A DNA stretch of 64,000 nucleotides from Malacoraja senta (GCA_038087875.1 CM075996.1:1304001-1368000), one strand, 5' to 3'; positions 23,940 to 32,848 are shown, counted from the stretch's first letter. Numbers and translations are program-made. The notes: generated from the letters alone by a model not told the origin.

Positions 23940-24052
23940 CTACTGTACGACCTCTACATAGTTTGCAGGGTACAGTCCAATTCGGCCTCCATCCAGGTAA
24001 CCTTTACACCATCCCTGTTCATCCTCATCCTCGATTTTAGTCAGTTCCTGAC
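23940..24052 (-). CDS. PACSIN-like last exon (SH3 C-half)
   Basis: ttttcccag acceptor; [37 protein letters not shown] carries the PACSIN signature EDEQGWCKG...GLYPANYVE. Confidence 0.95.
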
Positions 24053-30000: not shown

Positions 30001-32848
30001 TTGATCACGGCCGCATTCACCAGGGCTTTTGTAACCAGCCCCTGTCATGGACAATGGATGATCGACACAAAAAGCTGGAGTAACTCAGCGGGACGGGCAG
30101 CATCTGTGGAGAGAAGGAGTGGGTGACGTTTTGGGTCGAGACTCTTCCTCAGTCTCGGAGAAGGGTCTCGACCCGAAACGTCACCCATCCCTTCTCTCCA
30201 GAGATGCTGCCAGTCCCGCTGAGTTACTCCAGCATTTTGTGTCTATCTTCGGTGTAAACCAGCGTCTGCAGTTCCTGGATAGTGGAGACAGTTGTGAAAT
30301 GTAATCACCGACTGTGCAACAAACCGTGGCTGGGCAAGGTCTACCCGTGTGATTAATGATAACCCTTGCCTGAGAAAGCCCCTGCGTGGGTCGACCCACA
30401 AACAATTATCCAGCCCCCTTGCTTCCAGAGTCTTGCCTATTATCCATTTTGCCAGACCAACAGAGGTCACGACCTGGGGGGGGGGGGGGGCAGAGATACC
30501 GGTCGCAAAGTCGGCTGTGGGTACGGATCTGCTGGCTCCGGCCCGGCTGGAGTTCCAGAGCACCGGCCAAATTCCACCCGCCGATCGGCGCGGAAATCCC
30601 AATGAGGTTGAGATCAGCCGTCTCGCCCGGCCTGGGCGACACACACTTTGGGGAGGGGTTTGTCCGGATTACAGGAGGGGGCTGGATCACCAGTTGCTGG
30701 ATATCCAGCGGTGGGCCTGTACACATTGAGGAAGAGCCCATACATGAGGTGTTGGCTCCATTGTTGAGCGCTGGTTCTCCCCATCACCCACTTATCCTGT
30801 CAGCTTCATCACCATGTGGTACATGCTGGTGGTACATTGGGGAGGGGATACGGGACATGGGGCTGTGTTGGCCGTCGTCCAGGTGTGGTCCAGAGTCCAC
30901 TACCGCCCGGTGGGATGTAGAGGGAGCGGAGTGACTCTGTGACTCTGCCGTTTGTGCGGGGGAAGGAGGGAGATTGTGGAGCAAACCCTTGTCTTCAGGA
31001 GCGAACCCACCAGGTCCTCAATGTTCACCTTAAGCTTTGAAGAACCACCTTCTCTGCTTCCTTCTGTCCTTTTCCTTTCTTGTCTGTATTCTTCTCTGTG
31101 CCCGGGCTCCATTCCTGCAAGGGGCAAGGTTTGGCGTTAGTCCCCAGTGAAGCACGCACTTCACGTCTCAGCTGATGGCAGTCGTCTCGTGCAAGTACTT
31201 GGCCAGCGCTGACTGACCAGTCCACACAGGGCGGCACGGTGGTGCAGCGGGTAGAGCTGCTGCCTCACAGCGCCAGTCACCCGGGTTCCATCCTGACTAC
31301 GGGTGCTGTCTGTACGGAGTTTGCACCTTCTCCCCGTGACCTGCGTGGGTTTTCTCCGGGTGCACCGGTTTCCTCCCGCACTCCAAAGACGTGCAGGTTT
31401 GAATACGTGGTGTGATTGTAAATTGTCCCCTAGTGTGCGTAGGATAGTGTTAGTGTGCGGGGATCGCTGGTCGGCACGGACTCGGTGGGCCGAATGGCCT
31501 GTGTCCGTGCTGTATCTCTAAAGTAAAACCTACAACACTACACGGGATGTCTCCATCTTGCTCAAATGAGTGGCAAACTACGATAGAGGTAGGGTGGGGA
31601 AACAAGGAACTGCAGATGCGGGTTTACACAAAAAGACACAGAGTGCTGGAGTAACTCAGCGGGTCAGGCAGCATCTGTGGAGAACATGGATAGGTGACGT
31701 TTCACAGAGTGCTGGAGTAACTCAGCGGGTCAGGCAGCATCTGTGGAGCGAAGGAAATAGGGCAACCTTTCGGGCCGAAACCCTGAAGGAAATAGGCAAC
31801 GTTTCGGGCCGAAACGTTGCCTATTTCCTTCGCTCCATAGATGCTGCCGGAACATGGATAGGTGACGTTTTGCGTCGGGACCTTTCCAAATCCAGGTGGA
31901 GGGATTTGCTTTTACAACACCTGATCATAAGTTGAACACAACACTAACCTCAGCATCTATGGCCCTTCTGTGTCTTTGGTTGGACTACAGCCTTCAGTTT
32001 TGCACTGTTATGCTTACCTAATATTACTGTTATTAGTTTATTGTATTATTGATTATCAGATATTTACCTGTGCCCTATTGTGTTCACAAGCCTGTTTTGG
32101 TGACACAGTGGTTCAGCGGGTAGGGCCACTGAGGGGGAGGGGGAGGTGAGGGCCAGGCGTACAAACAGTAACATTCATCTGGAGGGCAGCAGAACTAGTC
32201 GGAGAACCAGGGTGGAGAGAGGGGGAAAGCAAGGCGCAGGAAGGAACTGCAGACGCTGATTTAAACTGAAGATAGACACAAAATGCTGGAGTAACTCAGC
32301 GGGGCAGGCGGCATCTCTGGTGAGAAGGAATGGGTGACCTTTCCCCGAGTCTGAAGAAGGGTCTCGACCCGAAACGTCACCCGTTCCTTCTCTCCAGAGA
32401 TGTTGCCTGTCCTGCTTAGTTACTCAGCATCATGCGTTTAAGAAGGAACTGCAGATGCTGGAAAAATCGAAGGTAGACAAAAATGCTGGAGAAACTCAGC
32501 GGGTGAGGCAGCATCTGTGGAGAAGAGGAATTTCTTCTCACCCGCTGAGTTTCTCCAGCATTTTTGTCTCCCAGCATGATGTGTCTATCTTTGAGGGAGA
32601 GCTAGGGTTGGGTTGGGTTGGGTTGGGTTGCGTTGGGTTGGGTTGGGTTGGGTTGGGTTGGGTTGGGTTGGGTAGGGTTGGGTAGGGTTGGGTTGGGTCG
32701 GGTCGGGTGGGGTTGGGTTGGGTAGGGGTTGGGTTGGGTAGGGTTGGGTTGGGTTGGGTTGGGTAGGGTTGGGTTGGGTTGGGTTGGGTTGGGTTGGGTT
32801 GGGTTGGAGATGGATTGTGTTGGCGGGCGGGACCACTCACCTCAAAGT
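23940..32848 (-). CDS. PACSIN/syndapin family protein, 3' part (end of F-BAR exon, linker, SH3); candidate fourth paralog
   Basis: Exons (-): 32841-32848 (partial, ..FE|GTGAGT), 31029-31114, 28489-28601, 23940-24052. Spliced product: [105 protein letters not shown]. Confidence 0.92.
25689..25942. mobile_element. Palindromic MITE, PIF/Harbinger-like
   Basis: TIR AGGGCC(C/T)GTCCCACTTGG with long internal inverted arms and TTG/TTA flanks; related partial copy at ~6182-6330. Confidence 0.7.
28489..28601 (-). CDS. PACSIN-like exon (SH3 N-half)
   Basis: [23 protein letters not shown]; tttcacag acceptor, G|GTAAG donor. Confidence 0.94.
29350..29652 (+). mobile_element. tRNA-derived V-SINE (HE1-like), representative near-full-length copy
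   Basis: A/B-box head (TGGTGCAGCGG...GGTTCCATCC), V-domain-like core GGAGTTTGCACGTTCTCCCCGTG...GGTTTCCTCCC, CR1-like tail. Other copies at ~17987-18262, 31229-31527, 39978-40292 (+) and 9790-10058, 25190-25490 (-), among many more. Confidence 0.8.
31029..31114 (-). CDS. PACSIN-like linker exon
   Basis: Begins EWS as in PACSIN WPQFE|EWS; ttgcag acceptor; the AG|GTGAAC donor gives phase 2, matching the next exon. Confidence 0.8.
32351..32378 (+). ncRNA. Minimal hammerhead ribozyme motif within a Penelope-derived repeat (representative copy)
   Basis: CUGAAGA-A-GGGU-CUCG-ACCC-GAAAC-GUC; similar copies at 4660, 22420, 27978, 47974, 63161 (+) and 20959-20986, 51671-51698 and others (-). Confidence 0.65.
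32605..32806. repeat. (GGTTG)n pentanucleotide microsatellite
   Basis: Direct reading; lies just before the gap. Confidence 0.95.
32841..32848 (-). CDS. 3' tip of the PACSIN-like F-BAR-terminal exon, cut by the assembly gap
   Basis: AC TTT GAG|GTGAGT on - strand gives xFE plus a canonical donor, phase 0. Confidence 0.7.

Follow-up and report, generated by a model that had tools for sequence, protein, structure and literature searches.

The PACSIN-type coding exons that lie on the minus strand between MED25 and the LXR-beta gene in Malacoraja senta raise the question of whether they belong to one of the three PACSIN (syndapin) genes recognized so far, to a remnant, or to a further member of the family. 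Three paralogues have been stated for mammals, birds and amphibians (PMC9285741), six PACSIN genes of zebrafish have been ascribed to the teleost duplication (PMC2780292, PMC9285741), and zebrafish si:ch211-51c14.1 and zgc:91999 have been called additional pacsin3 paralogues (PMC9235069). The DNA analyzed in this work, hereafter the window, is a stretch of 64,000 nucleotides in which an earlier note had proposed a fourth PACSIN gene. Integrating exon structure, genome searches, comparative genomics and phylogeny, we consider, with a probability of roughly 0.88, that the window exons form the 3' portion of a fourth gene of the PACSIN/syndapin family (PACSIN4), sister to PACSIN3 and likely derived from the second vertebrate whole-genome duplication, whose product is predicted to be an F-BAR and SH3 membrane-bending adaptor.

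Exon structure and neighboring genes

The features of the window are as follows:

9351..16354, plus strand: MED25, 3' part, from the Pfam Med25 exon (E 5e-20) to the stop; the gene extends further upstream
23347..23939, minus strand: PACSIN4 3' UTR, minimum extent, based on contigs from presumed RNA runs of related organisms
23940..24052, minus strand: PACSIN4 terminal coding exon, 113 nt with the stop, second SH3 half; AG acceptor
28489..28601, minus strand: PACSIN4 penultimate exon, 113 nt, end of the short linker and first SH3 half; AG acceptor, GT donor
31029..31114, minus strand: PACSIN4 linker exon, basic, 86 nt; AG acceptor, GT donor
32841..32848, minus strand: final 8 bases of the PACSIN4 F-BAR-terminal exon, truncated by the gap and followed by a GT donor; matches skate protein P0009
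32849..33048, no strand: scaffold gap of 200 N, the sole N run in the window
33553..36959, plus strand: NR1H2 (LXR-beta), ligand-binding-domain exons through the stop; 62 bits to LXR-beta, 44 to LXR-alpha
49485..64000, plus strand: POLD1-type gene from its likely start codon; weak Pfam matches, below cut-off as single exons (POL3_N, E 0.0016; DNA_pol_B_exo1, E 0.006)

The intact, spliced PACSIN-type linker and SH3 read by the earlier note on the minus strand were recovered: three exons with AG and GT sites splice in frame into 103 amino acids ending at a stop. The SH3 domain was matched by Pfam on the penultimate and terminal exons, and this C-terminal SH3 is of PACSIN type, the top five PDB sequence matches all being PACSINs (best E 8e-16); the terminal SH3 exon by itself scored higher with PACSIN2 and PACSIN1 than with PACSIN3. 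The exon end at 32841 falls at a position shared with the genome's own PACSIN1 and PACSIN2. At residue 9 the linker exon encodes Asn, against Ile in all five relatives compared, representing either a species change or a base error.

Since the only N run is that at 32849-33048, MED25 stands on the same contig as the PACSIN4 exons, tail to tail and, as the earlier note had stated, with no gap between them. The receptor that the note had placed head-to-head with the PACSIN exons across the gap is LXR-beta by its bit scores, and the linkage of PACSIN4 to LXR-beta and POLD1 spans the 200-N scaffold join. The DNA-binding-domain exons of LXR-beta were not seen in 33049-33553, the stretch running from the gap up to its first ligand-domain exon, and the 5' half of that gene presumably lies within the gap too. 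We infer that the gap hides the PACSIN4 F-BAR exons together with the LXR-beta 5' exons, the window carrying just the 3' quarter of PACSIN4. A five-base simple repeat at 32600-32800, immediately inside the gap edge, may be the cause of the contig break. Elsewhere in the window, a MED25 intron contains a 15-base tandem array with several open frames (8494-9022), and further intronic open stretches (57644-58736, 34258-34971 and 10308-10820) resemble what we take to be remnants of LINE reverse transcriptase.

Full-length relatives and transcripts

A search of the assembly with a full-length skate protein, in which all 47 candidates were scored, returned no match above 53% identity for the F-BAR exons of the window gene; the 5' three quarters of PACSIN4 are thus absent from the assembly and, as far as the search reaches, not placed elsewhere. 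FCH-family and full-length protein searches recovered F-BAR exons for PACSIN1 and PACSIN2 only. The unplaced F-BAR matches C4120 and C5587 were rejected, as they belong to other F-BAR genes.

The closest proteins were those of skates, identical at 101 of 103 residues over the shared part and 422 amino acids in full length with an F-BAR domain, and full-length PACSIN4 proteins of 405-422 amino acids were identified in rays, sharks and chimaera. Logan proteins of 422 amino acids, from contigs of 1.6-2.3 kb, make up seven of the skate cluster's 12 members, which implies a spliced full-length mRNA in these close relatives, because the last three exons of the window alone span 7.2 kb. Putative transcript evidence comes from four of the 24 runs listed, none of which is on record as RNA; the four compared are all from related organisms and guessed to be RNA, with one of them (X1) flagged as probably DNA. 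In three of the four, a contig of the terminal exon and 3' UTR (2096, 932 and 715 bases) was present at a depth equal to the coverage of the exon 4.4 kb away; we infer splicing from this equal depth, the 15 joints displayed being repeats. In run X1, seven of the eight listed coding differences from the window were silent.

Four PACSIN loci in four paralogous segments

The PACSIN terminal exon has four matches in the genome: in the window (scaffold C20), at C3:87.9 Mb, at C5:34.39 Mb and at C3:38.745 Mb. Their best matches among 570 proteins were PACSIN4-type, PACSIN2, PACSIN1 and PACSIN3, respectively, and the terminal SH3 exon of the window gene is 79-83% identical to the genome's own PACSIN1 and PACSIN2 copies. 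The separate PACSIN3 near NR1H3 that the earlier note proposed to look for in this genome lies at C3:38744860-38749300; it was typed from two short exons, the first and last coding ones, which were the only ones found, and is cut by a 200-N gap between them (38748109). Acid-phosphatase matches stand at C3:38.83-38.88 Mb, 80-140 kb from this PACSIN3. LXR-alpha is found at C3:38.98 Mb, at a distance of 240 kb and on the other strand, repeating the head-to-head arrangement of the window. The ACP2/LXR-alpha block is on C3 with the PACSIN3-type exons, and the window gene is outside it. The two LXRs have been described as paralogues of gnathostomes, LXR-alpha lying near ACP2 at 11p11.2 and LXR-beta near ACPT at 19q13.33 (PMC5381633).

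Tub-family loci were found at C20:5.79, C5:11.65, C3:42.43 and C3:88.38 Mb; a fifth, on C18, is distant. Four Tub-family genes hence share scaffolds with the four PACSINs, two of them within 4 Mb, a sharing with a chance of ~6e-6 by scaffold length; Tub and TEAD were picked on the basis of human paralogy and are not a random sample. TEAD matches fell on C3, C5 and C20, the scaffolds of three of the four segments, and on one unplaced contig, with no TEAD match near C3:88 Mb; the genome search found no ETS gene on C20. The four PACSIN copies accordingly sit in four paralogous segments common to other families (Tub in 4/4, the LXR pair, TEAD in 3/4). A 1R/2R paralogon including the PACSIN family has been described on segments of human chromosomes 11, 12, 22, 1, 6 and 19 (PMC7353957).

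C20 also carries a cathepsin D/napsin-like gene (C20:4162665-4175108), 2.8 Mb from LXR-beta, which is likely the napsin orthologue; this distance, the missing ETS gene on C20 and the lack of a TEAD match near C3:88 Mb speak against the paralogon reading. In human, NAPSA and SHANK1 are both located at 19q13.33; a short SHANK1 fragment used as query gave no genome match and was uninformative. The PACSIN2 and PACSIN3 blocks (87.9 and 38.7 Mb) represent two paralogous segments on the single scaffold C3, owing either to a fusion or to a scaffolding join. At C5:34412344-34441806, a set of three PACSIN1 exons is present in two copies with equal scores and a spacing of 22.5 kb, probably as an assembly duplication.

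Phylogenetic analyses

With five invertebrate-type rows as root, the 56-row tree (LG+C20) resolved the family as ((PACSIN1,PACSIN2),(PACSIN3,PACSIN4)), each clade with support of at least 100/98 and the PACSIN4 clade with 100/100. PACSIN3 joined PACSIN4 at 100/97 and PACSIN1 joined PACSIN2 at 100/98. The window row was placed among skates; in this PACSIN tree, of the type called for by the earlier note, its protein is outside the PACSIN1, PACSIN2 and PACSIN3 clades. The same note had claimed an additional PACSIN that is the whole-genome duplication sister of PACSIN3 and lies in a segment paralogous to that of PACSIN3, which agrees with the four loci, the PACSIN3-PACSIN4 node and the Tub genes of what is a four-fold set of paralogous segments. 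A tree of the F-BAR domain alone also grouped PACSIN3 with PACSIN4 (support 94). Conger P0060 was grouped as PACSIN1 and Ascaphus P0466 as PACSIN2.

Coelacanth, lungfish, gar and bowfin are each present in both the PACSIN3 and the PACSIN4 clades. Clades PACSIN1, PACSIN2 and PACSIN4 span cartilaginous and bony vertebrates, the cartilaginous PACSIN3 consisting of the two short exons of the present genome, outside the tree. As the rows leave out chondrichthyan and mammalian PACSIN3, cyclostomes and tunicates, the dating against 1R/2R relies on the tree topology and on the scaffolds that the families share.

In the AU test (27 rows, LG+F+G4), all five alternatives were rejected (p <=0.003; 5000 replicates, with a too-few-replicates warning), including PACSIN4 with PACSIN1 and PACSIN4 with PACSIN2; placing the shark copy inside PACSIN3 gave p 3e-8, rejecting its identity as the true PACSIN3. 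A translocated PACSIN3 was rejected on the separate clade and on the genome's own PACSIN3 beside LXR-alpha on C3, and a teleost- or shark-specific duplicate on the range of the PACSIN4 clade, which runs from chimaera to alligator and includes teleosts.

Alternative explanations

A sister relation to PACSIN3 fits a whole-genome duplication copy and equally a small-scale duplicate of PACSIN3 that arose in early jawed vertebrates and was relocated beside LXR-beta; the tree has no cyclostome rows and the LXR-beta adjacency crosses the gap, both in favor of the latter. Nevertheless, a small-scale origin appears improbable, given that the head-to-head PACSIN-LXR pair recurs on C3 and C20, that Tub and TEAD genes are found on the same scaffolds, and that the PACSIN segments belong to one 1R/2R paralogon (PMC7353957). 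It is more doubtful still that the root lies elsewhere, with PACSIN4 or PACSIN3 branching first through a pre-2R duplication and PACSIN4 not being the 2R sister of PACSIN3. The stem of PACSIN4 is long (0.39), as are the outgroups, and the SH test did not reject either of the other root positions (p 0.24 each), but the AU test gave p 0.003 for both, the PACSIN3-PACSIN4 node held its support under a site-mixture model, and long-branch attraction would draw PACSIN4 rootward, which was not seen.

Regarding the state of the gene in the present species, the failure to find any F-BAR exon of it in the assembly speaks for a 5'-truncated remnant or pseudogene. Against this, the contig ends within the F-BAR-terminal exon beside the simple repeat, PACSIN3 and LXR-beta are likewise cut by gaps in the same assembly, and the frame, the splice sites and the 101/103 identity with full-length skate proteins are those of an intact gene, so that a remnant is very hard to credit. 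An intact fourth PACSIN that is the whole-genome duplication sister of PACSIN3 is the reading followed below.

Taxonomic range and database names

The PACSIN4 clade includes chimaera, sharks, rays, coelacanth, lungfish, frogs, newt and caecilians, as well as lizards, snakes, turtles, alligators, bichir, gar, bowfin and teleosts. Retention of the gene in the present lineage, as claimed earlier, therefore stands, although not as a lineage-specific trait, the gene being found in most jawed vertebrates. Among the best 120 of 1766 matches, the clade contained no named protein from a mammal or bird, the alligator member being ranked lower; PACSIN4 is apparently missing from mammals, as judged from papers giving three mammalian genes (PMC2780292, PMC9285741). 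ESM Atlas holds PACSIN clusters with phylum-level taxa only and is uninformative on mammals. The three-paralogue statement for amphibians (PMC9285741) is contradicted by the members from frogs, newt and caecilians.

Proteins labelled si:ch211-51c14.1 and zgc:91999 form two teleost branches of the clade. The same-named salmonid and medaka proteins, and the Xenopus tropicalis protein sharing its name with Xenopus mgc147475, are PACSIN4 members, with the zebrafish proteins themselves outside the trees. Whereas papers describe pacsin3 extras or a teleost duplication, these two would represent the two teleost copies of a gene whose age is that of the jawed vertebrates. CHST16 is comparable as an unnamed 2R ohnolog of the same paralogon lost toward mammals; it was reported lost in all amniotes (PMC7353957), whereas PACSIN4 is kept in squamates, turtles and crocodilians.

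Database names of PACSIN4 proteins comprise PACSIN1, 2, 3, '-like', napsin-A and hedgehog. Models of Alligator sinensis are misnamed napsin-A (P0116/P0136), a Platysternon model is misnamed tiggy-winkle hedgehog (P0313), and in a Clarias magur model (P0277) SHANK1 is fused to a PACSIN4-type F-BAR; the napsin-A naming and the SHANK1 fusion hint at shared neighbors of PACSIN4. PACSIN4 proteins are hence already in databases under other names, and what is new is their recognition as a fourth family member. No paper naming PACSIN4 or syndapin IV, nor an account of a fourth gnathostome PACSIN, was found in the literature searched, outside which fell two key subscription reviews; the figshare data of PMC7353957 may show a fourth branch. 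Extra syndapins in fish and frog are reportedly mentioned in a 2004 review by Kessels and Qualmann.

Sequence traits of PACSIN4

Full-length traits of PACSIN4 were taken from relatives and not from the window individual. They were counted in those of the 570 proteins with 370-530 amino acids, a clear clade and the anchors (30 PACSIN1, 118 PACSIN2, 24 PACSIN3, 120 PACSIN4 and 7 invertebrate sequences); isoforms and close species are included, so the counts are non-independent. Median linker length was 88, 85, 92 and 43 residues in PACSIN1 to PACSIN4. The WS[DE][DE] block was present in 30/30 PACSIN1, 106/118 PACSIN2, 24/24 PACSIN3 and 0/120 PACSIN4, and its occurrence in 4/7 invertebrates indicates that the loss in PACSIN4 is derived. 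The NPF motif was found in 23/30 PACSIN1 and 118/118 PACSIN2, and in none of the 24 PACSIN3 and 120 PACSIN4 proteins. The linker, which the earlier note had likened to that of PACSIN3, is short and without NPF as described, but differs in its length and in having no WS[DE][DE] block.

In the window, no NPF was detected in the exons or on the coding strand of the introns, and a hidden acidic exon was rejected, as no WS[DE][DE]-type motif was found in these introns. The penultimate exon is 113 nt long against ~200 nt in the genome's own PACSIN1 and PACSIN2, where the WS[DE][DE] and NPF block sits.

The amphipathic wedge loop in helix 2 of the F-BAR shows a hydrophobic pair in 115/120 PACSIN4 relatives, the other five being unmatched by the pattern, and ends in Phe in 108/120, as it does in none of the other groups. 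The net charge of the F-BAR ranged from -2 to +6 in PACSIN1-3, from +1 to +14 in PACSIN4 of bony vertebrates and from +20 to +26 in that of cartilaginous fishes, with the excess of the latter located in residues 141-240. Phosphorylation of PACSIN2 at S313 reduces membrane binding (PMC4832444). At the equivalent position, Ser occurs in 6/6 PACSIN2, and Ser or Thr in 5/6 PACSIN3, 3/6 PACSIN1 and 0/15 PACSIN4; this column was counted without gaps and is uncertain for ray-finned fish, and Thr stands one place earlier in cartilaginous fishes.

PACSIN3 resembles PACSIN4 as its sister clade, with F-BAR and SH3, no NPF and a head-to-head LXR neighbor, and differs in linker length (92 against 43), net charge (-6 against +4), scaffold, the WS[DE][DE] block (24/24 against 0/120) and the Phe-ended wedge (0/24 against 108/120). 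PACSIN1 and PACSIN2 share the fold and the exon boundaries of the 3' part, but carry NPF and WS[DE][DE] and are paired with each other in the tree.

Proposed function and implications

The structure model of relative P0009 (mean pLDDT 79) comprises F-BAR and SH3 domains joined by a disordered linker; its best Foldseek matches were PACSIN F-BARs (target TM 0.92), and the wedge-loop hairpin lies between helices 95-137 and 147-196. By analogy with characterized family members, PACSIN4 would dimerize via its F-BAR and bind acidic lipids (PMC3517540, PMC9285741, PMC4973260), its wedge loop would insert and bend the membrane, and its SH3 may recruit dynamin or N-WASP (PMC3517540, PMC9285741). Judging from its anatomy without NPF, it would not bind EHD proteins. 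It would also have no phospho-switches in the central region, so that its hold on the membrane is predicted to be more constitutive, and greatest in cartilaginous fishes because their F-BAR is far more basic.

Zebrafish ch211-51c14.1, which has no NPF, is enriched in heart and skeletal muscle, and zebrafish pacsin3 is ubiquitous (PMC9235069); this expression suggests a muscle role for PACSIN4 in caveolae-type invaginations. As a tentative proposal, to which we give rather low odds, PACSIN4 might be the syndapin that ancestrally served muscle in jawed vertebrates, free of switches (with a short basic linker, an aromatic wedge and, in sharks and rays, very basic tips) and shaping caveolae or related invaginations, and mammalian PACSIN3 might have taken on the muscle role upon the loss of PACSIN4. 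If this were true, work on 'pacsin3' in fish, frog and reptile would have a hidden redundant partner.

PACSIN4 extends a known family and is not a new type of system. Its misnamed entries can mislead orthology and knock-down work, and the teleost-specific reading of the extra zebrafish genes would be corrected. As a natural variant without the regulatory linker, PACSIN4 would be useful for testing linker autoinhibition, a question left open in PMC3517540. Taken together, our results would raise the count of the PACSIN family in most jawed vertebrates from three to four.
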